Assembly (NCBI GenBank): GCA_020137815.1
Contig: CM035357.1
Coordinates: 7,192,001 to 7,256,000 of the forward strand
DNA: 64,000 nucleotides
DNA from: Hormiphora californensis
Lineage: Eukaryota > Animalia > Ctenophora
Reading direction: 5' to 3'
Position numbers and translations under genes: made by a program
Part shown: positions 10,768 to 60,720 of the stretch, in pieces
Position numbering within the stretch: position 1 is the stretch's first letter
Layout of the letters: each line of letters begins with the position of its first letter
Notes under the pieces: generated by a model
Seen by the model: the letters and a program-made list of their open reading frames with translations, nothing else
Told to the model about the DNA's origin: nothing
The model's database searches: none

Positions 10768-15542
<4,775 letters not shown>

Positions 15543-20917: not shown

Positions 20918-23900
20918 GTACAACCAGTGGAAAACGTCAAACGAGGCAAGGCGGGCAACTTTTGGTTCGAAAAACGAATAATGAAAACAAAACAATAAAT
21001 CAATTCATCCTCGGATCAATTTATCCTCGGATCCTCAAGTTCTTCAGGTCACCAGTTCAGTATTTGTTAGACTAGTGATAGCAATCTTCCTCCGATTTCC
21101 TCTTAATGCAATAAGGCATGATCTCAGGAGGGAGAATCGTAGCCTCGTCCTCAGGTGCGCCATCACTTCACTGTACGGTTCTCCGGTTCTTGTGGAGACT
21201 CGGTGTGAGAGAGTCTTGAGCACCTTTTGGAACTCGTTGGCTATCCCGCCTGCTGTATTCATAACCAGCGGAGAGAAGGCACCCCCTTCAACTTCTCTTA
21301 CACGCTTTCCGTACGACTGCTTCTTGCTAGCCTCGTTTCTTCGGTAGAGTTGGTCGAGGGGCGTGTCGATATAGGAGGGCGAATTGGCATGGAAAATTCG
21401 CACATCCATATGAGCCAGCTGCATTTTTCGCCACATGTCAAGTGCTATCACATCCATCCTTGCATCAGGGGCTGTGTTTGCCGAAGGGTGAAAGTGTATG
21501 CCGTCCGGACAAGGGAGAAGTAGCTTCTCTGTTTCCACACCTTTGAGGCCCGCATACGAGCATATCTCCGCCATTAGGTCCCTGATGTTGTCGTGACGGA
21601 GGATGGAATAGCCCCCGGTTGAACAGGACAAGGTATGGTCCGCATTGTTTGGCTTTCCACATACGCATGTCGCGCCCAAATCTTTGACCTCAAACCCGTA
21701 TCGCAGTGCCACTGAGTCGACGAATTCCAATTGATTCAGTTCGAAGCCCAGGTGAGGGTAGGGTGTTGCTGTGAGCCATACAGATGCTCCGGCCTCTCCA
21801 GCGAGCTCTAGACATCTCACTAGCTTTGGGCATGTGATTCTAGTGAGTAACTCTTTGAGAGTGTCTGAGTGGTGGTCCTCATTCTCCTTTGCTATCTTGT
21901 TCCTTGCCTCTCTTGCATTCTTCTCCACTAGAGCCATTTCTATTTCTTCTTCGTTACGGCATAGTATCAAATCAACAAGGGGCTTCGTCAATGCTCGGGA
22001 GTTGCTGTATGATCTGTCAGAGGTTTTGACCGGGTTCTCAATTCCCATTCCACCTTTTCCAGAGGGGAGTGCCAGTATCTCCCGTTCTAGGTCGGACACT
22101 TGACGGCCCACCAGACATGGAATCAACTGTGAACGGATGGTGTGTTCAAGCGGATCAAACAGATCACTGATGTCTGGAACTGTTCGCTGGAGAAAGGCCC
22201 ACTTGAATCGGAAGCTTCTCACAAAGTTGCTGTACGCCAAATGAGGATGGGCTTTGGCAATAGCCACAAGATTTTCCAGCTCAATGCACCATTTGGAAAC
22301 TGCAGCAGAAACAAATGTTTGCTTGAAGGTCTCAGATCCTATGGAAGCACCTAGGTGACGAGCACCTTCAGCAGTGATTTGAACCCCAGTATCTCCAAAC
22401 AGTCGCTTAGCATGGTCGAGCAGTTCAGGTTTCACGATAAGATGGCACTTTGCAGGGTTTACAAAATATCCGAAACTGGGGCCAAAGGTTGTCACCTTGT
22501 CAAACCACTCTAACAAGCCCGTGAGCTTCCCTGCATTGTTTGCATCATCTGCATACCACACTTGTGTTGTATCTGGCGTCTCCGCAAGCTCGATCAGTCT
22601 TAGTATGCCAATTGAGTAGAAGTCCATTGCAGCTGGATCTCCCTGTGTGGCTCCTTCAGAGCTCCACAGTAGCTTTTCACCAACAAAAAGTGCCCTTGGC
22701 TTCCCGTAGATGTTGGTCAGAAATGTGGAGAGGTCCGGACAGTAGAAGGTAGTGTTCTTCAGGGCCATTTTCCGGTTGAGATTGTTAAACGCGTTCTGGG
22801 CGTCCAACAACAGTACACCTTCACATTCCTCAGATTCAAACTTCTCACTCAGTGCATGGATCGCTGCCTCCACACCTCCTAACTGACCTGCAGCTAGTTG
22901 AACCTTTCCAGCCGCACTCTTGATGTCCGACTTGATGGTGCGAATAATGGCCTTGGTCATAACACGTCTGAAACACTCTCCTATTCCAATAGGACGTGTT
23001 CCACCTCCAGGCTTGGCAAGGGGCATGAGGCGACTTGCACAGAAAATGTCCAAAGCTTTCAAGTCAACCTGCTCTGTGGCTAGGGTCCGAGCTGCTTTTG
23101 CAAGCGCTGTGCACAGTGCTGGGGGTGATTTCTTGAATTTCCTGGAGCAAAGGATTCGGTGTATTCCTGTTGCATCTAGTCCACTTGGTCCTCCACTACC
23201 TTTGAGGCTTTTGCCGCATGAGAAAATCGTTTGCCCATTCATACCGTCAAAGGTGACTTCCAATACTGCATCTGTTGGCCCCTGTCTCGCCAGGGTACTG
23301 TTGGCAGGCTGACCCTTTGGGTGTTTCTCTAGCAGATCAGACAATACGGACTCGTCGTTGCAGTCCTTAACTCCAGTTGTATGCCTCTCGGGGTTCAACC
23401 ATGCAGTTGCCTCTGTAACTCTCCCCTCTCTGGTTAGGTCCACAAACCTCTTAGTGCAGAGTTCAGAAGATGGGACATTGTGCTTCAATGGTTTCTGGAT
23501 AACCTTGGCTTCCCGAACCAACGCCTCAAAGTCTCCATCGTGCCACAGTTTTAGGCGTCGTTTGAGAACTTGAGCATGCTCCCGATTCTTCGACTTCTTG
23601 GCCGGCTTCTGGAGTAGCAGCAGTGGGGCTATAACCAAAGCAGATAAGGACCATCCTCTGGTGTCTTCCCTATCACTGAAGAGACCTGCCAGTCTGGTAA
23701 GTTCATCAATGAAAGAACGGCCCACTTGACCGAAGGGAACTTTGAACAGGTTGGTTGACCATCCCTGACTGATCATAGAGATGTTGGAGAAAGCCTCGAT
23801 GAGCTCTTCCCCATTCAACGGTCCCCAACAGTTAGCTTTACAAGGCTCTGTAGTCTTCCAAACTAATCTGTTTAGGTTGAAACAGGCAGTACAATACCAC

Positions 23901-23949
23901 ACTACAGGTGTATGAACCATTTGTTCAGATTGATTAACCGGTGTCATAC

Positions 23950-23992
23950 AGTTTCAGGCTTTTCGGCACTACTTTAAACAAATTAATTTGAG
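23950..23992 (+). other. Genomic copy of spliced-leader exon at LINE 5' end
   Basis: AGTTTCAGGCTTTTCGGCACTACTTTAAACAAATTAATTTGAG, not followed by GT. Matches my recollection of the ctenophore SL 3' part and aligns with the copies at 44564 and 44967. Confidence 0.8.
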
Positions 23993-24042
23993 GACGCAAT
24001 GTTCTTGGATTAACAGCCTGTTTTAGCCATGGAGTTTTAGGA

Positions 24043-24486
24043 ATGGTTGTTAACAACGCCTCCAACATGATTCTAGACAACACACCTCTAGAGGAAGTCT
24101 TTACCAGGGTATCATCGCCCGTGTTGGAGAGGATTATACAGATTGTACAAAAGGAGCTAGAGAGGCGTAAGAGAGATGGAGTTCCAGAAAAGGATCCGAA
24201 TCAGTTTGTTACCCACCACGGGAGATATGTTTCTGATGAGGACCTCGAGATGATGAAATGGGAAGTAGGAGGATTAACTGGCAAGAATACCTGGCTAACT
24301 AACACTGGGTGTCCCTACGGGTGGGCCAATGTGGACCTGCCACCCAGGGACATAACTAAATACCCGAACATTAACAAGCTGATGGGGAGGATTAACAAGG
24401 ACCAAGGGACTGAGTTCAACTCCTGCCTAGTCACTAGATACAGAAAAGGGGACGGCGTGGGATACCACTCAGATTTCGAGACTTCG
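24043..24486 (+). pseudogene. Truncated AlkB-like 2OG-Fe(II) dioxygenase domain (LINE ORF1 position)
   Basis: WL..TGCPYGW....INKLMGRIN....FNSCLVTRYRKGDGVGYHSDFE (HxD at 24466-24474). The distal His/Arg motifs are lost at the deletion junction near 24486. Confidence 0.75.
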
Positions 24487-26003
24487 CTGGTGCAGATAAT
24501 ATTGACGGTGTTGTGCTTAAGAAATGTCATAAATCCCTAGCTTATCCACTCACCCTTATATTTAATAAATCATACTCAGAGGGATGTATACCAACAGAAT
24601 GGAAAACCGCGAACGTTGTCCCAGTTTACAAGAAAGGGGAACGATCATGCGTTGAGAATTATAGGCCTATATCCCTGACTTGCCTTGTTATGAAAGTTTT
24701 TGAGAAATTAGTAAGAGAACGCCTATATAAAGCTTGTCTAGAAAAAATAACTCCCTACCAGCATGGTTTTGTACCCTTGAAATCATGTACATCACAACTG
24801 ATTGAGTTTAATTGTGAATTAGCGTTGAACATAAATAACCGAAATCAAACTGATATAGTTTACTTTGACTTTCAGAAAGCCTTCGATAGTGTATCTCATG
24901 ATGTAATAATAAATAAGCTGAAAAATGAGTTTAATTTAGGAGGTAAGATGTTACGTTTCCTAATGAATTATTTATCTGGTAGGCAACAGAGGGTTGTGTT
25001 AGATGGGGAATTTTCAGAATGGGTAGAGGTTAGGAGTGGAGTTCCACAAGGATCAATACTAGGTCCTTTCTTGTTTGTGTTATTCATAAATGATATTGTT
25101 AATGTTTTAAGAGAAGATGATCTAACCAAAATTAGGCTATATGCAGATGATCTGAAAATTTGGCGGGTTATAAATAGTGAAGAAGATAGTTTGCAGCCCG
25201 ACATCGATAGTTTAGTGGAATGGGCAAAGGATAATAAAATGATATTCCATCCTAAAAAGTGTAAGCTGCTTAGGTGTACTAAAATTATTAAACAACGTCA
25301 ATTAAATTATCACCTAGGCAGAGATGAAATCAAATTATGTGAAAATGAAGTTGATCTAGGAGTCTCAACTAATCACAAGTTGTCGCCAATCGAACACCAG
25401 AAAAATGTTGTTTCCAAAGCTTCTCAAAGATTAGGACTGGTGAAGCGTGTAGGCGTATTAGTTAAATGTCCCCTTAAAAAGAAGAACCTCTACATTAGTC
25501 TAGTTAGATCTTTGTTCGAACACTGTAGCCAAATATGGCGTCCACAAAGTGAGTCAAGTCTGCTTAAGTTTGAACGACTCCAGAAACGTGCCACAAAATG
25601 GATATTCGGTGAAACAGATACCAGTTATAGTTTAGATACGTATATAAAGAAACTCAGGGAGATTGACGTACTCCCAATGACTCAAAAATTCCAATATAAT
25701 GATCTTAAATTGTTCCATAAAATATTCTATGAGACGTCTCCTATAAAACTCCCATCTTTCCTACAAAAATACAATTCGGAATTACATGACAGACGTGCCA
25801 CCAGACAACAAACAAAACGAGACAGTACGGACATTATATGTACCGAACAACCCAGAGTAGACCTGTTCAAAAACTGTTACTTTTATCGCTGCCACCTTGA
25901 GTGGAACTTACTTCCTAAAGAACTGAGAAATACAGCTGAACACCATTTATTTTCCTCTAGACTGAAAGACCATCTCTGGAAAGCCTTACACGACATAACT
26001 TAA
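24486..26003 (+). CDS. LINE ORF2 reverse transcriptase (no APE domain retained)
   Basis: Open frame from AGADNIDGVVLKKC..LAYPL..IFNKS through YADD to WNLLP. Confidence 0.9.
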   Translation, partial: AGADNIDGVVLKKCHKSLAYPLTLIFNKSYSEGCIPTEWKTANVVPVYKKGERSCVENYRPISLTCLVMKVFEKLVRERLYKACLEKITPYQHGFVPLKSCTSQLIEFNCELALNINNRNQTDIVYFDFQKAFDSVSHDVIINKLKNEFNLGGKMLRFLMNYLSGRQQRVVLDGEFSEWVEVRSGVPQGSILGPFLFVLFINDIVNVLREDDLTKIRLYADDLKIWRVINSEEDSLQPDIDSLVEWAKDNKMIFHPKKCKLLRCTKIIKQRQLNYHLGRDEIKLCENEVDLGVSTNHKLSPIEHQKNVVSKASQRLGLVKRVGVLVKCPLKKKNLYISLVRSLFEHCSQIWRPQSESSLLKFERLQKRATKWIFGETDTSYSLDTYIKKLREIDVLPMTQKFQYNDLKLFHKIFYETSPIKLPSFLQKYNSELHDRRATRQQTKRDSTDIICTEQPRVDLFKNCYFYRCHLEWNLLPKELRNTAEHHLFSSRLKDHLWKALHDIT

Positions 26004-27336
26004 TTCGCTGCTGTGGTGTGGGCCCCTTTCTCTTCTTTTAACTTTACAGTAACTGTCCTTCTTCCGCACATAGCTTTCATTCTTACATTGTACTCAAATT
26101 GAAGGTTTGGAGTGGTGTTGAACAGTTTGAAACAAGATGGTGGACCCGCACCACAGATGTGAATTATAACTGATCTTAACATCTACCCAACAGTCGACAT
26201 GACGTTAAATTCGGGGTATGGTTCATGGGGGAGGGAGGTGGGGGATTGGGAATCAAGGGTAAGTATTAAGTATAATTGTTATTATTATTGAGTGAAATAA
26301 ATTTAGCTTATAACTAGTATAAGAGTGTGTCGTAGCCTTATAGCTACTTTTTTTAAATATTTTTAAATTAGTTTTTTAAGACGTAAGCACTCGCGCCATA
26401 GGCTGCTAAACTATTAGTAAGAGTCAGTCGGGTATTTATTTAATGTGCAATTTGTACGTTTATATAATATCTATTTCAAATCAAATCAAATCAGGTCTGG
26501 TGAAAAGGTTCATGACATGCTTCACATTTGGCATTCTCATAAGACGGCAGTGTTTCATAGCATTGCCCACACTTCTCTTCTGTAAACCACCTCGACTCAT
26601 TTATCAATCTGCTTATGGGCGTTGAGTTTGAAATGGGTGTTCCCCTTGTGATGCTGGTGTTGGGAGTAGCATAATCATGGTCACCGTCTGAAGCCGATCC
26701 TGAGCTGTCGGAGGATAGAGAGTCGTCAGGGGATACGACAAACGATCTGAGGTGAGCTTGTGGGTGGAACGGTCTATGTAGGGATGATGACGGCCGAAGG
26801 GCTACTGGTGAGAGACGTGCCTTGGCTTTGGATCGCGTGATCATGTGATCGGGGTGGTGAGTGATTGTTGAGAATTCTCAACTTGTTGGGTGTATGAATA
26901 ATAAGTCCTTTCCGCGGAAATTTCCGGGAAGAACTTTGACGTTTCGTTGAGTGTGCTCAACTAGAAAAAGAAAATAAAGAAGAGATCTTGTTGATCTTAA
27001 CGTCTGGAACCCTCTCTGGCCTATCGATGGCCAGAGAGACAAATAGCAACAAAACGAACTTTAAAAAATCAGACCTATTTCCCAATCCGAAATCAAAAAC
27101 GAATCGAAAATTTACAAAAATCTGTCTGTTTTAAAAACTTCCAATCTCTTGATTTTTGCGGCCGCAACGATGAAATACGACAAATCGCGCGTTACATCAT
27201 AAGCAGCGGGACAATCTTTCAGAGCGCGTCCCAAAGATTCTCAGGATTCGCGGAGAGCTGGGCCGCGGTTCCAAAGTTTAAAACTTCGAGACTCGCAGTT
27301 TCAACTTCCTCCGACCTTTTCGTTTCGTTTGCAGTC

Positions 27337-44563: not shown

Positions 44564-44650
44564 TTTCAAACTTTCAATCAACTACAACGAAAAACTATCT
44601 ATTAGTAATGTGTATTTAATTGTTTAGGGAAAATGATCCATTCGGATTCA
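44564..44650 (+). ncRNA. Putative spliced-leader RNA gene or pseudogene
   Basis: SL-like exon TTTCAAACTTTCAATCAACTACAACGAAAAACTATCTATTAG overlapping GTAATG (donor-like), then Sm-like AATTGTTTAGG and hairpin GATCC-ATTC-GGATTC. Confidence 0.55.
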
Positions 44651-44966
44651 ATACTTATGTGGTGGCAATGCTACAGCGCATGAGTGATGAGGATTGAGGG
44701 GAGCGAGCGCTGATGATCCTGAAGGCTGAAGGCTCCTCTATCGCGTAAGGCCCCAGGTAGAGATTCGAATACTGGAGCCAGTTTCTTGATGCCAGAGATT
44801 CACTCTGCTGCTGACATTGCGCACGGCGCCTACTTTCAATACAATTCACATCGAAATTCCTGCTAGTCATTGAAGATGTCGTGCGCAGCATGGTTCATCA
44901 GGAGTGTCAGTTTCCAATCTGCAACTGGAGCGTAACTTGGAAATATTTACACACTTCACACCGCAC

Positions 44967-45009
44967 AGTTCAAACTTTCATCAACTACAACGTAAAACTA
45001 TTTATTGAG
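44967..45009 (+). other. Second SL-like exon at 5' end of L2-like LINE
   Basis: AGTTCAAACTTTCATCAACTACAACGTAAAACTATTTATTGAG, followed by GCGG (no GT donor). Confidence 0.7.
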
Positions 45010-48000
45010 GCGGCACCCCCCCCTCAATTGTTTCAGTCGTATGTACCTACACTAAGTGGACGAGAGGAACCCGAGACTGTACGATCAACCCGAGAACACC
45101 CCTTCCCCAGAACCACTCCCCCTCCGAACCGAGCCTCACTTGCACTGTGATGACGTCCCTAAACCAAAAAACATTGACAGGGCCCAAGATTCCCTTTGCA
45201 AATTGAAACCTTCTCATCTTTAAAAACTCGGTTCCCAATAAAAGTCCAAAACTTGCCCCCTCAACTGAAAAGGCGGGTGTTTCTCCAAAATACTACCAAA
45301 TCTGTCTTTCATGAAAAAGTGCACTCCTTCCTTTTTTCCCCGTTACCTTCTCCCCCATGCTCCCCAAACTCTCGAAAGTTCCTCGAAAACTTAGGCAAAA
45401 AATGATCTCCAAAAATTTGTTCTCCCCTCTCATTGTTTTTTTAAACAAATCATCGGACCGAACTTCAACGGTGGCCTAAAACTCCCTGTTGAACTGAAGA
45501 CAACTTCCAGCAAAGGAAGGGTTTTCTTTATATTCATCGTGAAGTCTACCATCGTGTGCACATTAAAAGGTGCCCCCATTGTCAAGCTCTTGGGCACTAT
45601 CCCGACCAATGCCCAAAACGATTTGCATCCTGCTACCTGCATGTACTGTGCTGAAAAACATCCAACAAATGATTGCCCGGTAAAAGAAGACACGGAGAAG
45701 CATCAGTGTAAAAACTGTCTACATTCCAGTCGTTCCAACCCAGATATCCCAGTCCATCATGCTGGTTCATCAAAATGCCCCACCTATAAAGAACAGTACG
45801 ATAAGCTCTCAAAAAAACTACCGTCTTTCGCAGCTCCCTGCACTCAAATACGGAAATCTAAACTGCCGATCGATGAATAACAAGCTCATTGACATCTGTG
45901 AAACGTTCCACGACCTTGGTCTGGATTTTTTCCCTTAAAAGACCTGGGGGAATGGCACATCGTTACTCCCTGAGTGATGAAAGTTTGGGTTAAACCCCTC
46001 TTATTCTCAAGAGGAAACGAGGGGGGGGTTGCTATTCTTGCAAAAAAAAAGCATAAAAATCCGTACTGTGAAACTAATAAAACCCCAAAAACCTTTAAAA
46101 ATCTACACTACCGTTAAGGAGGAAACCCCCAAAAGGACAACTAGGGTTGAAATTCGGGCCACCTTCTACCTCAAAAAAAGATTTCTGATTGAGTTTGAGG
46201 AATACTTTCCTCTAAATGGACAATGGTCTCCCTTTTTTTGGAATTTCAAACATCCACACTGAGGATGAAAACGATCCAAACGTCAAAAGCCTTTACAATT
46301 TTCTTATAAGATGGATAAAACCTGGAAAAACCCTACGCAGTCGCTGGAGGGACTTGACCTGCATCACGAGACGATGAGCTCCCACCAATCATGCTATAGG
46401 TCGCGAAATCGCATTTTGATATTTGCATAACCCTTTCCCATTCCATGTGGTAAAACCTACACCAGAAAAAAATGGTAACAGCAGAAAGATGAAAAAACGT
46501 AACCCTGGAGGCCCTTTCTTCTAAAATAGCAGATTCCTCGCTAGTCTACCCGCTGAGACCTACTGAACTAGAAGACTGCTTACGGCTGTATTATGATACT
46601 CTGATGAATATCCTCGATGAATTAGCCCCAGTTGAGGAGATGACTGTTAAAGAATCAGATAATCCACCCTGGTACACTAAAGAGTGTGTTGATGCCAAAC
46701 GAACTCGCAGAAAATACGAGAGAGCGTTCAAAAACTGCCCTTAAGAAAGCTAAGAAGAAATCGGACTACAGCGATGCATGGATAGCCCTGAAAAACTTCA
46801 CCGATGAAACTTCTAGGTTATTACGAAAACCAGAGTATCCTACTACCGTGAAAAACTGAAACTGGTTGCTGATGATCCAGCAGCGGTAAGCGGTATCATA
46901 AACAAGCTTCTTGGTAAAGACAAGATCCCTCAGGAACTACCAAGTGGATGGTCGGATGAAGAAGCAGCGAACAAATTTAGTGCTTACTTTAAATCAAAGA
47001 TCGAAAACATCTATGAGATGATTAAAGTCGAGAAAGCACTTAATGGATGTGTTCCTGACCTTTCCGAGGAAACCACCTTTAAAGGAAATTCCTTCTCCTC
47101 TTTCAAGAAAGTGAGTGATGAGGATCTCACTGCTATTATAACGTCGATGAGCAAGAAGCACTGTGATCTTGATCCGATACCTACTCGAACTCTAGTTGGA
47201 CTCTTACCGCAACTATTACCTATTATATCTGACATTGTCAATGGAAGCCTTCAAGAGGGAAGATTCCCTGAAATGCTGAAACAATCCCTGGTTAGGCCAT
47301 CTTTCAAGAAAAAGGACAGTCCCGAGGATATGAAGAATTACCGTCCTGTTTCTAATTTATCCTTCATCTCGAAGATCATCGAGAAATGTGCGGCGGCCCA
47401 ATTAACTGAGCATCTGGAGGAGAATATTTGTTTCCAGGAGTGCAATCAGCTTACAGAACACATCACAGCACTGAGACCACTCTTGTGAAGGTGGTCAACG
47501 ATCTCCTGCTCATTACTGACGAGAAATCCAAGGCAATCCTAGTACTTTTAGACTTGAGCGCTGCTTTCGATACCATCAATCACAAGATACTCCTGGGGAA
47601 GCTGAAAAAGGAACTATGGTGTGACAGGGACTGCTCTCTCTTGGTTGAGTCCTACCTGACGGACAGAAAGGCCTCGGTAAAAGTTGGAAACTCGACCTCA
47701 TCGCCAGTGGCTATAACCATCGGAGTTCCTCAAGGATCCATCTTAGGGCCCCTTTTGTTCATTCTCTATACCAAAGAACTTGAGAGTATCGCTAAGCACT
47801 ATGGTTTACTAGTAGAGCTATATGCTGACGATACGCAGCTCTATGTTTCATTTACCAACAACAAACTAGTTGACTTGGAAAAGACACTTCAGGAATGTCT
47901 CAACCATATCAAGGTGTGGATGGCAGACAACTTTCTTCGACTAAATCCTTCGAAAACTGAATTCATCGTTCTTAGAAACAAACACGACAAAGAAGCGAAT

Positions 48001-48537
48001 CCAGAAGCTATAAAAGCACTAGACGACCAAGATCCATCTGTTCCAGCCCCACTGGTGCGAAACCTTGGTGTTTTCCTTGATTCGGAGCTTTCACTAACTG
48101 GAAACGTTTCAAAAAACAGTAAGAGCATGCAATCTGTGTCTCCTGAATCTTTGGAAGATAGGTAATACACTAACTATCGACCTCAAAGTGAAGCTAGTCA
48201 ACACCCTTGTACACAGTAGGCTTGATTACTGCAATAGTCTACTTGCGGGAGCATCTGCTAAAGACCTCGGGAGGTTACAAAAGGTTCAAAACGCTGCCAC
48301 AAGATTCATCACGGGACGCCGATCTCTTCATAGCACATCAGACATTCGAAAACAGCTTCATTTTCTACCGGTTAAGGAAAGAATTAACTACAAGCTATGC
48401 TTATTGACCTACAAAGCCCTAAACGGTCTAGCACCGACGTATCTTTCTGAACTGGTACAGCGTCGGAAGCACAAGCTGAAGAATCTCCGGCGTGATATGG
48501 ACATAACATATCTTGAAAGGAAATACACCCGTTATTG

Positions 48538-49563
48538 TGACACCTGCCATTTGTAATACGTTTCTCGATTGTTACTCTTGTCAATTTGGTCTGGAAATGG
48601 CATCTCATTTCCCCTTTCTAACTCTACTAATTCACTTTATTCACTTCACAATCCCTTCTGAATGTTCCCCCTAGCAATTATCAGAGTGATTACGTCTCGA
48701 TGTTTTGTCCCGTCCCCTCTCTTCAGATAAAATCTCACACTTGGCACTCTTCTCTATTCTCTCCCTACCTCCCACCCCCTCCGCCCCGCCCCCTCCACCC
48801 CCGCCCCACCTCCCCCACCCCTGCCCTTCCCAATTTAGGGCACTTTGTTACACAGGCCACTACAGCGACAATCCTTGTGTTTTGGTGCACTAAGTCGCTT
48901 ATCGCGTGTAACAGTTATCACTGGTCTTATCTATATTATCCGACTTGTCTTCTAGAACATTTTACACTCTACGTTGGTACTGCCCCACGCCTTATTTGTG
49001 TTTGATCGTCTTTTATCTTTACCTGTAATTGAAAGGAATACACCTCTCACCTTATCACCAACAACATCACGGTATCAATCATACATCAAATACTGTAAGT
49101 TCATCTGTCTGTATTGACTGTTCATTCATTGTGTACAATTGATAATGTTACCGGATTTAACCTTACCTACAAATTATTTAATTAGAGCTACTATAGACAG
49201 ACTACCCCAGACCCAAGCTTGAGAAGTGTCCACTCGACGGACCGTCGTCGTAACAAACAAACGAACAGGCTTACTTGCACAGCCACCCAAGCTTGAAAAT
49301 TTGCCCCCTAACTTGTCATGTTGCTTATTCGCAAGATAACTGCAAATGTCCTCACGGGGCGGAGATGCGAAGAGTGCAACCGACCTTTAACCGTGGGGGC
49401 TGCGTAAGTGTCTGGCAAGTACAATGACTGACTGACATTAAGAATGCCATGATATTAACTGACCACAACACGATGACAGACGCTATGACGAGGTTGCAAT
49501 GTCGTTCTGCCCTAACGGGCAGAGTTTGGCACGCTATAACCTATCTGTACCACCACCACCACC
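48538..49563 (+). mobile_element. About 1-kb non-coding insertion with 13-bp TSD and (CAC)n end
   Basis: ACACCCGTTATTG at 48525-48537 and 49564-49576; the LINE ORF2 resumes in frame after removal (RKYTRYC-SSKGAFSVAAP). Confidence 0.85.
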
Positions 49564-50566
49564 ACACCCGTTATTGCTCGAGCAAAGGAGCCTTTAGTGT
49601 CGCTGCGCCAGCAGTGTGGAACGACCTGCCGAAACTTCTACGTGAAAATACATCCGTCCTATCCTTTAAAGCCAACCTAAAGACTCACTTCTTCAAAAAA
49701 GCCTACAAATGTTGAAGGACCCATTTTCGGTATGAAACATGGACAATTGTGACAGAGTGATGTGTATGAGTATATGTAACGTGTGTAGCGTGAACTAAGT
49801 GAAGCTGGAATGGTCAGTATTTATTTTTTTTCCTCTCTTTCCTCTATCCTCTAAACTGACCCTTACTGCTAATGATTGGTTTGTTTATTTTGTAACATTT
49901 GATATCAAAAGGGAAAAAAAAAGAAAAAAAAAAAAAAAAAAAAAAGGACAACAACAAAAAAGCGAGAAAAACGTGTGAATATAAAAAACATCCCAATGAA
50001 AAAAAAAAAAAAAAAAAAAAAAAAGTTGTCCTAAAAAAAAAAAAGAAAAAGAGAGCTTGCGAGAAAATAGAATGATATGTGAGGACTTGTAAGTGTTTAA
50101 GCAGTTGGCAAGTGGCTTCTACTACTCCAAATTGGTCAACTGAATTACTGGAAATTGGAAATGCTACATGATACATCTTCTTCGAGCATTTTATGTGCAA
50201 CTAAGCACACAGGTTTCAGTATAGGTATCCTAGTATCAGTATCCCCGATAGGGGCGGTCTTCAATTTGCTTCTTTTGGATCTTTTAGATCCTTCAAGGAT
50301 ATTATATGCACTACTGCATTTTCTGCAGTGATAGGATCCCCTAAATTATTTTCTCAACCTTCCAAATATATTAACAAAACATCTTTCAGAAGATAAGAAA
50401 AAATCATAATCTTGTAGTAAAACTAGCCGCTTTTGGAGCGAGGGCTGTTGGGGATGAAAGAGGATGGAATGATGAATTTTTCTTCTTCCAACAGCAGAAC
50501 TTGTGCTGAACCGTAAAACGGACAGTTAAAGAGCGGACTATAAATGTTTATTTTGTATTGTATTGT

Positions 50567-53287: not shown

Positions 53288-53404
53288 GAGAGAGATAAGA
53301 GAGCGAAGAGAGAGAAAAAAAACGAACTCGTGATAGTAAGGAAATTAGAGATTAAAAGTTTAATCTCTTATCAGTGCACTACAGTAGAAGATTGGCGGAA
53401 TCGC

Positions 53405-54155
53405 CCTACCCAACCCCCAATTTTTTTTTTAAAAAAAAAAAAAAATTAAAAAAAATTGGGGTTTTCCCCCCCCCCCTTTTTTTTTCCCCCCCCCTTTTTT
53501 TTAAAAATTTTTTTTTTTTTCCCCCCCCTTTTTTTTTTTTTTTTCCCCCCCCCTTTTTCCCCCCTTTTCCCCCCCTTCCCCCTTTTCCCCCCCCCCTTTT
53601 GGGCGTTTCCCGGGGGGGGAAAAATTTTAAATTTTTTAAAAAAAAACCCCAAAAACCCAAAAAAAATTAAAAAAGGGGAAAAAAGGGGGAAAAAAAAATT
53701 TTTAAAAAACCCCCAAAAAAACCGGGGGCCGGGGTTTTTTGGGGGAAAAAAAAGAGGGGGCCCCCTTTTTTTTTTTGGGGGTTTTTTTTTTTTTCCCCCC
53801 CCCCTTTTTTTTTTCCCCCCCCCAAAAAAAAAATTTAAAAAAAAAATTTTTTTTTTTTCCCCCCCCCAAAAAACCCCCCCCCTTTTCCCCCCCCCCCTTT
53901 TTTTCCCCTTTTTTTTTCCCAAAAACCCCTCCCCCCCTTTAAAACCCCTTTGGGCCTTTTGGGTTTTTTTAAACCCTTTTCCCCCAAAAAAACTTTAAAA
54001 AAAAAACCTTTTTTTTTTAAACCCCCCCCCCTTAAAAAAAATTTTTCCCCCCCTTTTTTAAAGAAAAAAAAAAAAAATTTTTTTTTAAAATTTTTTTAAA
54101 AAAAGGGGCCCAAAGGGAAAACCCCTTTTCCCCCCCCCCCAAAAAAAAAATTTTT

Positions 54156-54186
<31 letters not shown>

Positions 54187-54356
54187 GGGGGGAAAAAAAA
54201 AAGGTTTTTTTTTTAAAAAAAATTTTAAAAATTTTTTTTTGGGCCCCCCAAAAAAAAAAAAGGGGAAAAAAAAAAAACCCCCCCGGGGGGGAAAAGGGGG
54301 GAAAAAAAAGGGCCCGGGGGGGGGGAAAAAAGGGGTTCCCCGGGGGGGGAAAAAAA

Positions 54357-54394
<38 letters not shown>

Positions 54395-57300
54395 AGTTTG
54401 GGGGGGTTTTTTGGGGGGGGGGTTTTTTTTTTTTTTTTTTTTTTTCCCCCCCCCGGGGGGAAAAAAGGGGGGTTTTCCAAATTTTTCCCCTTTTTTCCCC
54501 CCAATTTAAAATTTTTTTTTTCCCGGTTCCCCCCGGGGGGGAAATTTTTAAAAAAGGGGGGGGAATTTTTTTCCCCTTTTAAAAGGGGGGGTTTTTTTTT
54601 TTTTTTTTTTTTTAAAAAATTTTTGGGGTTTTTTTTTAAAAAATTTTTTTTTTTAAAAAAAAAAAAAATTTTTTTTTGGGGGGGGGGGGGAAAAAAAAAA
54701 ATTTTTTTTTTTAAAATTTTGGGGGGTTGGGTTTTTTGGGGGGGTTTTGGGGGGGGGGGGAAAAAAAAAAATTTTTTTGGGGGGTTTTTTTTAAATTTTT
54801 TTTTTTTTTTGGGGGTTTGGGGGGAAAAAAAGGGTTTTTTTTTTTTTTTTTTCCTTTTTGGGGGGGGGTTTTTTTTTTTTTTTTTTTTTGGGGGGGGGGG
54901 AAAAAAAGGGGGGGGGGGTTTTTTTTTTTTCCCCCCCTTTTTCCCGGGTTTTTCCTCCTCTTTTTTCCCCCCCTTTCCCCCCCCTTTTTCCTCCCCCTTT
55001 TCCCCCCCCTCTTTTCTCCCCCTTTTTCCCCTTTTCCCCTTTCCCTCTTTCCCCCCCCTCTCTCTCTCCCCCCCCCTCTTTCCCCCCCCCCCTTTTTCCC
55101 TTCCCCCCCCTTTTTTTTTTTTTTCCCCCCCCCCCCCCTTCTTTTCTTTTTCCCTCTTTTCCTTTTTTCTTTTTTTTTTCCCCTTTTTCCTTTCCCCCCC
55201 CCCCCTTTTTCCCCCCCCCCTTTTTTCCCCCTTTTCCCCTCCCCCCCCGCTTCCCCCTTTTTCCTCCCTCTCTCTCTTTTCCCCCCCCCTTTCTTTCTCT
55301 CTCCCCCCCCCCGGTTTTTTCCCCCTTTTTTTTTTCTTTTTCCCCCCTTCCTTTTTTTCCCCCCCTTTCCCCCCCCCTTCTCCTTTTTTTTTTTATTTTT
55401 TTTTCCCCCCCCCCCCCCCCAAAATTTCCCCCAAAAAAAAAAATTTTTCCCCCCCCCCTTTTTTTCCCTTTTTCCCTTTTTTCCCCCCTTTTTCCCAAAA
55501 CCCCAAAGGGGTTTTTGGGGGGGAAACAAAATTTTCCCAAAAAAAAAAAAACCCCTTTTGGGGGTTTTTTTTTTCCCCTGAAATTTTTGGGGCAAAAAAC
55601 AATGGAAAAAAAGGGGGTTAAAAAAATTTTTTTTTTTGGAAAACCCCCCCCCAAAAAACCCCCCCCAAAACCCCCCCCCCTTTTAAAAAATTTTTTTTTT
55701 TAAAAAAATTTTTAAAAAACCTTTTTTTTAATTTTTTTCCCGGGGCATTTTTTTAAAATTTTTTAACCCGTTTTAAAAAACCCCGGGCCGGGGGGGGGGG
55801 AAATTTTTTCAAATTTTTTTTTTTCCCTTTAAAAAAAAAAAACCCCTTTTTTTTTTTTAAAAAAATTTTAATTTTTTTTCCCAATTTTTTCCCAAGCGCG
55901 AAAAACCCCTTTTTAAAAAAAAAAACCCCCCCCCGGGGGCAAACCCCCGGGGGGGGGGGGGGTTTTTTTTTTTTTTTTTTTAAACCCCCCTTTTTTTTTT
56001 TTGGGGGGGTTTTTTAAAAAAAAAGGGGGGGGGTTTTTTTTTTTTTTTTAAAAAAAAAATTTTTCCCCCCCGGGGCCCCCCCCCTTTTTTAAAAGCCCCT
56101 TTTTTTTTTTCCCCCCCTTTTTTTTCCTTTTTTTTTTTTTTCCCCCTTTGGGGCCCCTTTTTTAAAAAATTTTTTAAAAATTTTTAAAAAAAAAAAAATA
56201 AAAAAAAAAGGGGGGGGCCCCCCAAAAAAAAAGGGGGTTTTTAAATTAAAAAACCCCCTTTTCCCGGGGCCAAACCCCCCCCCCCCGGGGTTTTAGGAAA
56301 ATTTTTTTTCCCCCCCCCCCCCCAAAACCTTGGGAAAAATTTTTTTCCAAAAATTTTTTAAAACCCTTTCCCCCAAAACCCCTTCCCCCCCCCCCCCCCG
56401 GGGGAAAACTAAACTCGATCAACACAGTCTAAGCTGCCTCGGGAGGTTATTTCAACCTTAGAACACAATCAAAGCGTGATCTCACTGCGAACCCCCTTAG
56501 CTGAGGCTGGGTTTGGGGGTGTTTTTTTATGAACCTCAAATTCCCCTTCTTCCCAAATAATGGAGAGGGTTCCCAAAAACCTTCCGCCTCAACCCCCCCG
56601 AAGAAAGGGTCGAATTTTAAAGTCTCCCCACGTGCCCCCTGGTCCCTTATTGGCCCAAAAAAACATTTTTCCTTTATTTCCGCGTTTTTTAATTTTCCGG
56701 CCCCCAATTCCCGAGCCCCCCCCAATCAATCTCTTCCTATTACCAAGGCCTCAAGAAAAACGAGGTAGAAGAAACGACATATGGTTAACGTGTTTGCGGT
56801 CAAAAAATTTCCTTCACAACCCGGTTTTTCCCTTTTTCCTCGACCCTCCCGGAAATTTTGGGCGATGAAAAGGGCCCTTCTATAAAAAAACTTTCTTCTA
56901 AACTTTCCGATTTAAAAAGAAAAAATCCATCCCGACTCTATCCGGTACATTAGGCAACGATTACATTTTTTGCCTCTTGAGGAAACTTTGATCAAATCTA
57001 AGGGGGCACCTGGCCTAGCCCAAAACGTTTTCAACCCACAGGAAAGATATTAAAATTTTAATATGATTAAAAAAAATTTGAATTAATTTTTATAATCCCT
57101 TTTATTTACAGGAAAAACCTTGATTTCTATACCATTTTAAATAATTAAAAGGGGAAAACCAACCCCCCGGGTTTTGGCAAAAAAAAATTTTTTTAAACGA
57201 GGTTGTGAACGAAGTTTCCCCACAAGTATGCCCCAAATAGTCAAGACCTAACAGAACTCGTTTTTTTCTTAAAAAAAATGGACCCAATTTAAAAACGGGC

Positions 57301-58911: not shown

Positions 58912-59409
58912 AAATTAAAATTTACAGGGGGTAAATTCCCGGGAAAATGTTCAAATTTAAAAGGGTAAAAACTTTTGATTTGTTTGTGTTTTTTTTTTGT
59001 GTGTTTTTTTTTGTTTTGGGGGGCAAAAAACCAAACCCCCACCGAGGGTTAGGGAAAAGCCAGGTTTTATGCCAAAAATCTGGGGCCCTCCCGACAAAAG
59101 GTTTGCAAACCTTTTTCCTTTAAAATCTGTTTTTTTTGGGTTTTTTTTTTGTGTTAAAAAAAGTTGCTGATGTTTTTATTCAAAAGGATAACTGGGTTTT
59201 TTTTTTTTTTTTATTATCACTTTTGAACAAGAGAACATTAGTGTTTAAAAAAGTACATATAAAAAAACCCTTGATTAATATTATCTGACCGGATTAAAGT
59301 TGTTTTAATACTCTCAAGTTATCTGAACTCTGATTAATATACATAATCGCCCAAATATCCCTCAAATTACCATTTGTCATTATCTCCCCTCCTTCTCCTT
59401 GTTAGAAGC

Positions 59410-60720
59410 ATGGCCGAAAGGAAAAGTTTAATTTTTAATTTAAAATAAAAAAACCCCCAACCCAAACCCCCGGTTTATAAAGTACCACCAACCCCCCCCC
59501 CACCCTCCCCCCTTCAACTCTAAATTTTTTTCGAAAAAAGACCAAACCAAAATCCCCATCTCTTTCCCGCCCCTATTTTTTTTATTTTCCCCACAAACCA
59601 AAGGGAACCTTCCCGGAATCCCCACCCCAGGCCCAATTTTTTTGGTTTCCTTTCTTCCCCCGGAACCCACCCAAAAACCAGCTGGATTTTTTATGGGAAA
59701 TTTTTTTTGGCCCCCCTGGGGAAAAAATTTCGGGGTTTGGGGGTTTGGGGAGGGGGAGGGGTTGGGGGGTTTTTTGGGGGGGGGCCGGGTCAAGGGGTTT
59801 TGTACCCCCCTTCTCCCATCCAACACTTGTTTTCTTATTGGGGGAGGGGAAAAAATCCTTTTTAAATTTTTTTTTCCCTTTGTTTTGGGGGGGGGAGGGG
59901 TTTTTTTAAACCTGGGGGAAGGAAGAGGCCAAACAACGGTTTTCCAAATTTTTCCCAAAACCAAAAAGGACTTTTTTGATTAATTTCAAAATTGGGGGGG
60001 GGGGACTTAAATTTTTTTTAAAATTATTTTTTCCCCTTTTAAAAAAAAGGGGTTTTTCCTTCCGGTTTTCCTTTCCCCTCCTTCTCGACAGGTTGGACCC
60101 AAAAGGGGGGGGTTAGTGGGGAATTTTTGGGGTTTTCTATTACCAAAATGTTTTTGGGGTTTTTGGAATTATGGGTTTTTTTTGGGGGGACACTCCCCCA
60201 AATTATGGGGTTAAAAATTTTAAAATTTTTCCCCCTTAAACAAAAAAATGTTTCCAAATTTTTATATCTTTCAGGGACCCCCCCTTTTTAAAGGGGAAAT
60301 TTCTAATTTGGCTTTTGAAATTTTATGGGATGGTTCAACTAAACCCGTTCCTTTTGTTTTTTTTCTCAACCTAAACCTCTCCCCCCTTTTTAATCCGGGA
60401 TTGTAAAAGGTAAAGGAATTAGGGGTAGTTTCCTTTCTCTTCTTTTCCCCAAACCCAACCCCCTTGTCCTTTTGGGGGGGGGGTTTCCCGTTTTTTTTTG
60501 CCCAGGGGTTTTGGGTGACGGATAGAAAGTTTTACCCTCGAGGGTTTGTGATTTCCCCAATAATTTGGCGTTATCTTGAGGTTATTACCGAACCAGACAA
60601 ATAATTGATGAGACGAAGCAGTCAAATTGACGAAAGATAGACACATAAAATCCCCCTCATTACCCCTTTTTCTAAAAAAGCGCCTAAAAAAGAGTTTGAT
60701 ACACAAATATCCCACTCCAT
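59410..60720 (+). pseudogene. Corrupted tandem copy of CFAP300
   Basis: Starts ATGGCCGAAAGGAAAAG like 60782; 60585-60660 matches intron 61890-61964; collinear remnants lie in between. Confidence 0.6.

Follow-up and report, generated by a model that had tools for sequence, protein, structure and literature searches.

The stretch analysed here, hereafter called the window, comprises 64,000 nt of the genome of the ctenophore Hormiphora californensis (GCA_020137815.1, contig CM035357.1, forward-strand positions 7,192,001 to 7,256,000), and all coordinates below count from its first letter. A retrotransposon lacking long terminal repeats (a non-LTR element) on its minus strand is interrupted by a long interspersed nuclear element (LINE) that begins with a spliced-leader (SL) exon and continues with a short 5' untranslated region (UTR), the start of open reading frame (ORF) 1, the 3' half of ORF2, and a 3'UTR containing an antisense copy of the leader. 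A second, unrelated LINE lies further downstream and also starts with a leader (Table 1). The insert probably arose by reverse transcription of a LINE RNA that had received the host leader by trans-splicing and therefore carries the SL exon at its head, with which the antisense leader of the 3'UTR is predicted to pair.

Table 1. Features of the window. L numbers denote loci of the leader census, P numbers proteins of the LINE family, and X numbers public runs.
Feature	Position	Strand	Basis
Host non-LTR retrotransposon, single ORF (PHD, reverse transcriptase, restriction-like C terminus by eye), cut in the PHD finger	21044-26877	-	RVT_1; multi-copy depth
CAG, common to 26492-26494	23949-23951	+	3-nt target duplication, or microhomology to SL start (AG) and tail (CA)
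SL exon, class A, head of the first LINE	23950-23992	+	A>G at 23957, 23958, 23965, 23966; match to published leader and L011
Short 5'UTR, joined straight onto the SL exon	23993-24042	+	X1, X5, and X7 family contigs start in the SL and continue here
ORF1 codons 1-150, AlkB-like 2OG-Fe(II) oxygenase part	24043-24492	+	P0001 90%, P0002 (Pleurobrachia bachei) 62%; PF13532
Internal deletion junction, ~2.9 kb gone (rest of ORF1, APE endonuclease)	24492-24493	+	P0001 aa 150 abuts ~P0005 aa 639
ORF2 3' half (reverse transcriptase and C terminus), open	24493-26003	+	RVT_1, E 2.5e-31; 95% to P0005 aa 637-1141
3'UTR stem-loop, arms 26001-26025 and 26142-26166	26001-26166	+	Inverted repeat I1, 25 nt, 80%; fold
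Antisense copy of class A leader; predicted pairing, 38 of the 43 SL bases	26093-26134	+	Duplex energy; minimum-free-energy (MFE) fold of whole element
(CAAAT)3 tail, 3' end of the LINE	26477-26491	+	Sequence; empty site
SL exon, class B, head of the second LINE	44967-45009	+	Identical over nt 4-44 to SL genes L006, L007, L014
Second LINE, unrelated to the first; frameshifts, 5' part rich in errors, poly(A) tail	45010-49946	+	RVT_1

The first 43 nt of the LINE correspond to the ctenophore SL, agreeing at 39 positions with the published Hormiphora leader (PMC8527503) and at 39 with the exon of the SL RNA gene L011. The closest of 50 shuffled windows had 15 mismatches. All four mismatches between the head and the leader are A-to-G changes, at exon positions 8, 9, 16, and 17 (P = 0.002 under the local substitution spectrum). 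The exon is followed directly by GACGC and not by GT, and the 3' tail of the element runs into host retrotransposon sequence with no SL intron behind it, which is not the setting of an insertion into an SL gene. An Rfam scan of the window gave no match, leader exons included. The original prediction, made from the letters of the window, had described a ~43-nt SL-like exon with neither GT nor SL intron after it or at the 3' end of the insert; this description was borne out, also by comparison with the published leader, while the antisense leader and the A-to-G nature of the changes had been missed.

Contigs from four public runs, of which X1 and X5 carry one species label, X7 carries another, and X22 is guessed to be RNA, were compared with the window. 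The junction between the SL and the 5'UTR of the LINE family was present in three DNA runs under two species labels. Furthermore, joining position 23948 to 26492 gave one minus-strand open frame of 1,096 codons with a whole C4HC3 PHD finger, and this empty site was seen in contigs of X1, X5, and X7, in keeping with the earlier claim that the interrupted PHD ORF sets the 5' boundary. The letters CAG fit both sides of the empty-site joint, placing the ends of the insert at 23949-23952 and 26491-26494; either CAG was duplicated and the leader lacks its AG, or microhomology was used at both ends. The LINE copy was counted as real because both of its ends meet one site of the host element.

The insert is a 5'-complete but internally deleted copy of a CR1-like LINE; ~2.9 kb is missing between the start of ORF1 and the ORF2 half, and the copy cannot move alone. 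The first element is called CR1-like and the second LINE L2-like on the strength of motifs and not of named clade references, and a tree of nine rows placed the two LINEs on separate branches, which speaks for their separation only. The family to which the first LINE belongs could be followed in longer proteins. Its full ORF1 adds an SGNH esterase (PF13472 in P0001 and P0002), the start of ORF1 and this type of ORF2 are joined in one protein in P0003, and an X5 contig carries on in ORF1 at 24492, past the deletion point. P0003 and P0005 contain the APE endonuclease that the window copy has lost, so the endonuclease of the family is not of the restriction-like type. The reverse transcriptase is of the non-LTR kind, the CAAAT repeats of the tail and a target duplication of at most 3 nt agree with the CR1 group, and the body is that of a LINE and not of a copied cellular mRNA. 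Fusion of a 5'-truncated LINE to an AlkB mRNA of the host was considered and rejected, as the AlkB part is the ORF1 of the LINE family itself. The earlier statement that the LINE RNA had been fully reverse transcribed is upheld for the 5' end and fails for the whole copy, given the internal deletion.

ORF1 of this family fuses an AlkB-like domain to an SGNH esterase, and the best PDB matches of the AlkB-like domain were ALKBH2 and ALKBH3. Only three longer-protein relatives of this ORF1 were found. Residues ~145-156 of P0003, ahead of the endonuclease, form a motif ending in NPGP, which we take to resemble the 2A-like skip peptides of some LINEs. Neither the SL patterns nor the family proteins had a match in viral contig or genome contig collections.

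Leader-headed retroelements and probable renewal of the leader

A census of leaders, made by a pattern scan of metagenome contigs, returned 18 SL matches in 17 loci. Ten matches head retroelement-like sequence, five are SL RNA genes, and three are mRNA-like. The SL RNA genes (L006, L007, and L014 in class B; L011, twice, in class A) contain the exon followed by GTAAGCTG, with a GT donor, stem-loops, and a U-rich Sm-like site at nt 90-104 (fold z, -3.87 and -2.30), and the class A gene is a 778-bp tandem unit. Two classes of ctenophore SL RNA gene, represented by L011:693-830 and L006:2030-2165, share the donor and the U-rich site. The class A leader heads three unrelated, intronless host cDNA-like contigs, encoding a cathepsin (L001), the proteasome subunit Rpn9 (L005), and an unnamed protein (L012), so that the 43-mer does occur at the 5' ends of unrelated mRNAs, as the original prediction had implied; no class B leader was seen on an mRNA in the census. 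In addition, several unrelated contigs of the presumed RNA run X22 are SL-headed.

Six of the SL-headed loci contain ORF1 and an APE-bearing ORF2 (L002, L003, L004, L008, L010, and L017). The others are L015, with a PHD ORF cut by the contig end, L009 and L013, each with a single ORF and a microsatellite tail, and L016, with an unassigned ORF; these four are without reverse transcriptase and their retroelement label is weaker. At ~1.2 kb, the ORF1-only L009 and L013 resemble half-LINE non-autonomous elements. The second LINE of the window has a class B head, and its reverse transcriptase is 41-47% identical to those of the class-A-headed L003, L004, L008, and L017. One wider L2-like group thus includes elements headed by either SL class. 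The claims that an SL-trans-spliced LINE RNA had been retrotransposed, that the LINE at 44967 is likewise SL-headed, and that the pattern recurs in unrelated LINEs are all supported by these heads.

The heads are far better preserved than the sequences that they precede. All 10 LINE-type heads of the census matched SL gene exons with 0 mismatches over 40-41 nt, including the 17-18 leader positions that the search pattern left free, while in five related families the 60 nt after the head were only 52-85% alike and the ORF1 products 43-61% identical. Nine of the 10 heads fall short of the leader start by 1-3 nt, with no deeper loss among those found, and loose contig ends with unlike flanks lie at leader nt 1-3 in three DNA runs. 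Contigs with unlike sequence after the SL exon numbered 13 in X1, 14 in X5, and 14 in X7. None of 12 heads, five of them with <20 nt of flank, is flanked by SL-gene sequence. Since the heads remain identical to SL genes while the bodies have diverged widely, the leader appears to be added anew in each cycle; an inherited head would drift and erode, and a spliced-on head would not. Origin from trans-spliced RNA with renewal of the leader is highly probable. Capture of the leader from free SL RNA by template switching was rejected, because no intron letters follow any of the 12 heads.

A cycle of four steps would account for these features. A full-length copy would be read through from flanking transcription, and trans-splicing would then supply a fresh capped leader, the most likely acceptor being the terminal AG of the leader copy in the genome, so that the old head would be swapped without trace and no master copy would be needed. 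Copying by the ORF2 protein would start at the CAAAT tail of the RNA and end no more than 3 nt (0-3 nt) short of the cap. In the family of the first LINE, the leader and the 3'UTR would form a 38-bp panhandle, likely edited by ADAR; edits would pile up in the inherited 3'UTR arm, and the head would be wiped of them at each renewal.

Within this scheme, the case for renewal at the leader's own terminal AG is finely balanced. All five listed family contigs that cross the SL-5'UTR junction begin inside the SL (one in X1, two in X5, and two in X7; at least three 5'UTR variants), and one X1 contig, matching 23967-24346, runs unbroken from SL nt 18 into ORF1 at a depth of 781, compared with 48 on the neighboring 14-3-3 gene (~16-fold, a rough figure). 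Resplicing at the leader's AG is favored because a master copy bearing an acceptor should break this contig at 23993, but assembly into simplified contigs can drop a rare master. Several observations weigh against the proposed cycle. GAG is a poor splice acceptor, and the end of the leader has no long pyrimidine tract. No RNA of the LINE was seen; X22 covers the leader and host genes and not the LINE body, and no RNA source was listed for the stretch, which says nothing about its expression. The census favors heads that fit the search pattern, so that drifted or more deeply cut ones would escape it, and it favors multi-copy elements, which assemble best, so that they make up less of the genomic leader copies than 10 of 15 would suggest. 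Furthermore, the pieces listed, 32 out of 739, include no contig across the junction between host and SL. Assemblies often drop a short link that joins two repeats, and an unseen junction of this kind is no proof of absence; the unspanned junctions may mean either that the copy is rare or that the link was dropped.

The original prediction had expected master copies that keep an outron and a true acceptor, with SL-headed genomic copies as their dead-end daughters. Such masters would explain the exact junction, the perfect heads, and the 0- to 3-nt truncations equally well, would dispense with a GAG acceptor, and agree with the conserved position of the junction across five diverged families. 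Their propagation, however, would have to rely on unspliced RNA and should give rise to copies headed by an outron, and neither a parental copy with an acceptor in place of the SL nor any non-SL sequence joined to the 5'UTR was found among the listed contigs of the three DNA runs (24 of 52 loose ends), which leaves this expectation unsupported and such masters unlikely. A leader captured once and thereafter inherited as an initiator or promoter, with no fresh trans-splicing, is improbable. Both heads in the window follow C to give CAGT, as also happens at SL genes, and we take CAGT to be an initiator-like word; dinoflagellate SL relics have likewise been proposed as promoter motifs (PMC5585692). 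On the other hand, integration losses of 1-3 nt would accumulate over cycles, and the 10 heads are free of mismatches although the adjacent sequence has diverged by 15-48%.

Masters located within SL RNA genes where exon meets intron, comparable to NeSL and CRE-type elements, which target SL exons, and cotranscribed from the SL promoter would also yield perfect heads and exact junctions, and non-LTR elements that target SL genes do exist (PMC4640811). Known elements of this kind carry restriction-like endonucleases, whereas the endonuclease of the SL-headed families is APE or absent; the identical exact insertion would be required in each of several unrelated families, and the lack of SL-gene flanks at the heads, already described, counts further against an arrangement that we consider very improbable. 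Least probable of all is an assembly chimera or cDNA contamination, despite junctions missing from the listed contigs and stretches of low-quality sequence in the window, since both ends of the insert meet the same 3-nt host site and restore the ORF and since the SL-UTR junction recurs in three DNA runs.

An antisense leader in the 3'UTR

When the census loci were compared with the window by BLAST, a minus-strand leader match appeared at 26092-26134, 89 nt past the ORF2 stop. The predicted duplex between this antisense arm and the leader has an energy of -47.5 kcal/mol, compared with -15.1 ± 2.4 kcal/mol for shuffled sequences (best, -26.6; n = 500) and -17.4 ± 2.5 kcal/mol for shuffled leaders. 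The arm prefers class A, the class carried by the family of the first LINE (class B duplex, -26.4 kcal/mol), and is the only such pairing site in the 64 kb, the leaders themselves excepted. When the entire 2.5-kb element is folded to its MFE, 38 of the pairs between arm and leader are present, and the four changed positions of the head lie opposite U. The 3'UTR stem-loop encloses both the antisense leader and a pyrimidine tract ending in CAG. This tract, at 26026-26049, is acceptor-like on the RNA strand, or could be read as a decayed poly(A) on the other strand.

Compared with a perfect complement of the leader, the arm has eight substitutions and one gap, and four of the substitutions are A-to-G changes that keep G·U pairs. 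Only 5 of 3,000 simulated neutral decays with an equal number of changes paired as well. A maintained panhandle is somewhat more probable than not. The A's of the arm that are now G include 3 of 3 preceded by U and 1 of 13 others (P = 0.007), which fits the 5' neighbor preference of ADAR (PMC9989829); ctenophores have both ADAR1 and ADAR2 and edit repeats (PMC9989829). For the four G's of the head, we give ADAR about an even chance of being the source; a leader variant or an error is possible.

The editing and panhandle interpretations also meet contrary evidence. The changed A's of the head are preceded by A, A, C, and A, and its three U-preceded A's are unedited, which is atypical for ADAR, and the A-to-G share of the arm taken alone (four of eight changes) is weak (P = 0.057). 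The four G letters of the head occur in no listed contig (32 of 739 pieces), and the 16 listed pieces spanning both GG pairs each depart from it by four to six letters in the window sequence. A subfamily that is 89% identical (X1 contig, 25679-26132) aligns through the arm, but conservation of its individual letters was not seen in other copies, and 26092-26195 is skipped or replaced in another contig. In the second LINE, L009, L013, and L016, a search for an antisense leader gave none (best, -24.5 kcal/mol). Since these elements lack the arm, a panhandle is not needed for SL heads, and the arm is specific to its family.

It is possible, though we do not favor it, that the antisense leader is the inert relic of a tiny SL-headed RNA inserted in reverse orientation and that the G's of the head reflect an unseen SL gene variant, a later mutation, or an assembly error. 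An A-rich run ~50 nt after the arm on the minus strand resembles a decayed tail, and both the absence of the GG head from the listed contigs and the lack of an arm in other families agree with such a relic. Pairing has nevertheless been kept far better than neutral decay would allow, the alignment of the 89%-identical subfamily extends across the arm as far as 26132, and the X1 contigs here are mostly 0-2% from the window and gapless, which makes four clustered errors unlikely.

Neighboring elements and leader relics

No target-site duplication was found at the second LINE, which contains a nested insert of ~1 kb (48525-49576) with a 13-nt target duplication. Immediately upstream, a decayed class B leader (44564-44605) heads a decayed ORF-like stretch (44625-44966) that is cut by the second LINE and that had no usable Pfam or tblastx match, and past the LINE, 50402-50570 matches the SL-headed L013, at 79%, in its 3'UTR and tail. 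These three segments are possibly an older SL-headed short element that was split by the second LINE. The stretches 53400-56200, 59400-60000, and 45010-46500 are of low complexity and error-rich, like unpolished long-read sequence.

On the minus strand, 13145-14090 contains a leaderless, ORF1-only element that is 45% identical to the SL-headed L009 and lies directly after a (CT)n-TAG tract. It was considered as an acceptor-bearing parent and rejected, as it is without the N-terminal part of L009 and follows a tract that is like a cis intron. Upstream of the ORF of the host retrotransposon, the minus strand has a strong pyrimidine tract ending in TAG (26961-26990), and depth stays multi-copy past this ORF to ~27025. 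The host family may keep its own acceptor in genomic copies, a strategy opposite to that of the SL-headed LINE.

Relation to known systems

LINEs usually keep a defined 5' end, without loss of their promoter, by means of internal promoters or ribozymes. To renew a leader taken from the host would be a third way, in an animal and across unrelated families, and the leader marks exactly which LINE copies are 5'-complete. Tentatively, and with more doubt than confidence, ctenophore LINEs might be viewed as promoter-independent parasites of trans-splicing, in which each full-length copy regenerates an acceptor from the last AG of the leader and which supply most of the hundreds of leader copies scattered in ctenophore genomes; the 3'UTR of the CR1-like family might also have acquired an element that binds leaders, that folds the capped RNA into a panhandle or captures SL RNA and host mRNA leaders, and that bears a fossil record of ADAR editing. 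The antisense leader would then be an RNA element by which a retrotransposon addresses a tag present on at least 56% of the mRNA reads of the host (PMC8527503); it might act in RNA selection, in the control of translation, or in conflict with the host.

Searches that left subscription papers and repeat-database reports mostly uncovered brought up no account of animal genomes containing LINEs with SL heads and none of a LINE whose 3'UTR holds an antisense leader; nor did they return anything on an AlkB-esterase ORF1 or on ctenophore CR1 elements. An SL-headed LINE was also not found in the accessible parts of PMC2566580, PMC12460157, PMC11067881, PMC2861651, PMC3846280, and PMC4233971. The SL-relic retrogenes of dinoflagellates are comparable to the LINE described here in that a retrocopy in the DNA begins with a trans-spliced leader (PMC12014239, PMC5585692). 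Renewed trans-splicing at an AG inside the relic has been proposed for them, and self-renewal at the AG of the LINE head would parallel it (PMC5585692, PMC12014239). In dinoflagellates, however, host mRNAs are copied and the relics are partial or in tandem, according to the accessible text, whereas the LINE copies its own RNA, has a whole and single leader, and carries an antisense leader in its 3'UTR. In Hydra, RNAs of transposable elements (TEs) use host SL trans-splicing, as proposed here for ctenophore LINEs, with ~30% of TE Iso-Seq reads trans-spliced, but the accessible account is confined to RNA and describes no genomic SL-headed copies (PMC12220107). NeSL (PMC4640811) resembles the LINE of the window in that a LINE adjoins an SL exon in DNA. 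As far as the accessible text goes, NeSL-type elements insert into SL RNA genes and have a restriction-like endonuclease, whereas the leader of the window LINE lies inside the insert, its target is another retrotransposon, and its family has APE.

The first LINE shares with the CR1 group, a label that we assume, its two ORFs, an SGNH esterase in ORF1, APE together with a reverse transcriptase, a short tandem tail, and little or no target duplication. It differs from that group in the AlkB-like domain of ORF1 and in having a host leader as its 5' end in place of an internal-promoter UTR. CRE, SLACS, and CZAR are further elements that target SL exons. Dispersed genomic leader copies have been counted in ctenophores, with 718 in Hormiphora and 491 in Mnemiopsis (PMC8527503), and their nature is left unexplained in the accessible parts of that paper; here, 10 of 15 genomic matches head retroelements. 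Renewal of the leader would offer a testable account of the dispersed copies and is a warning that not all of them are SL genes. The parts of the proposed system are known separately, as SL-tagged retrogenes, trans-spliced TE RNAs, SL-targeting elements, and the unexplained leader copies of ctenophores.

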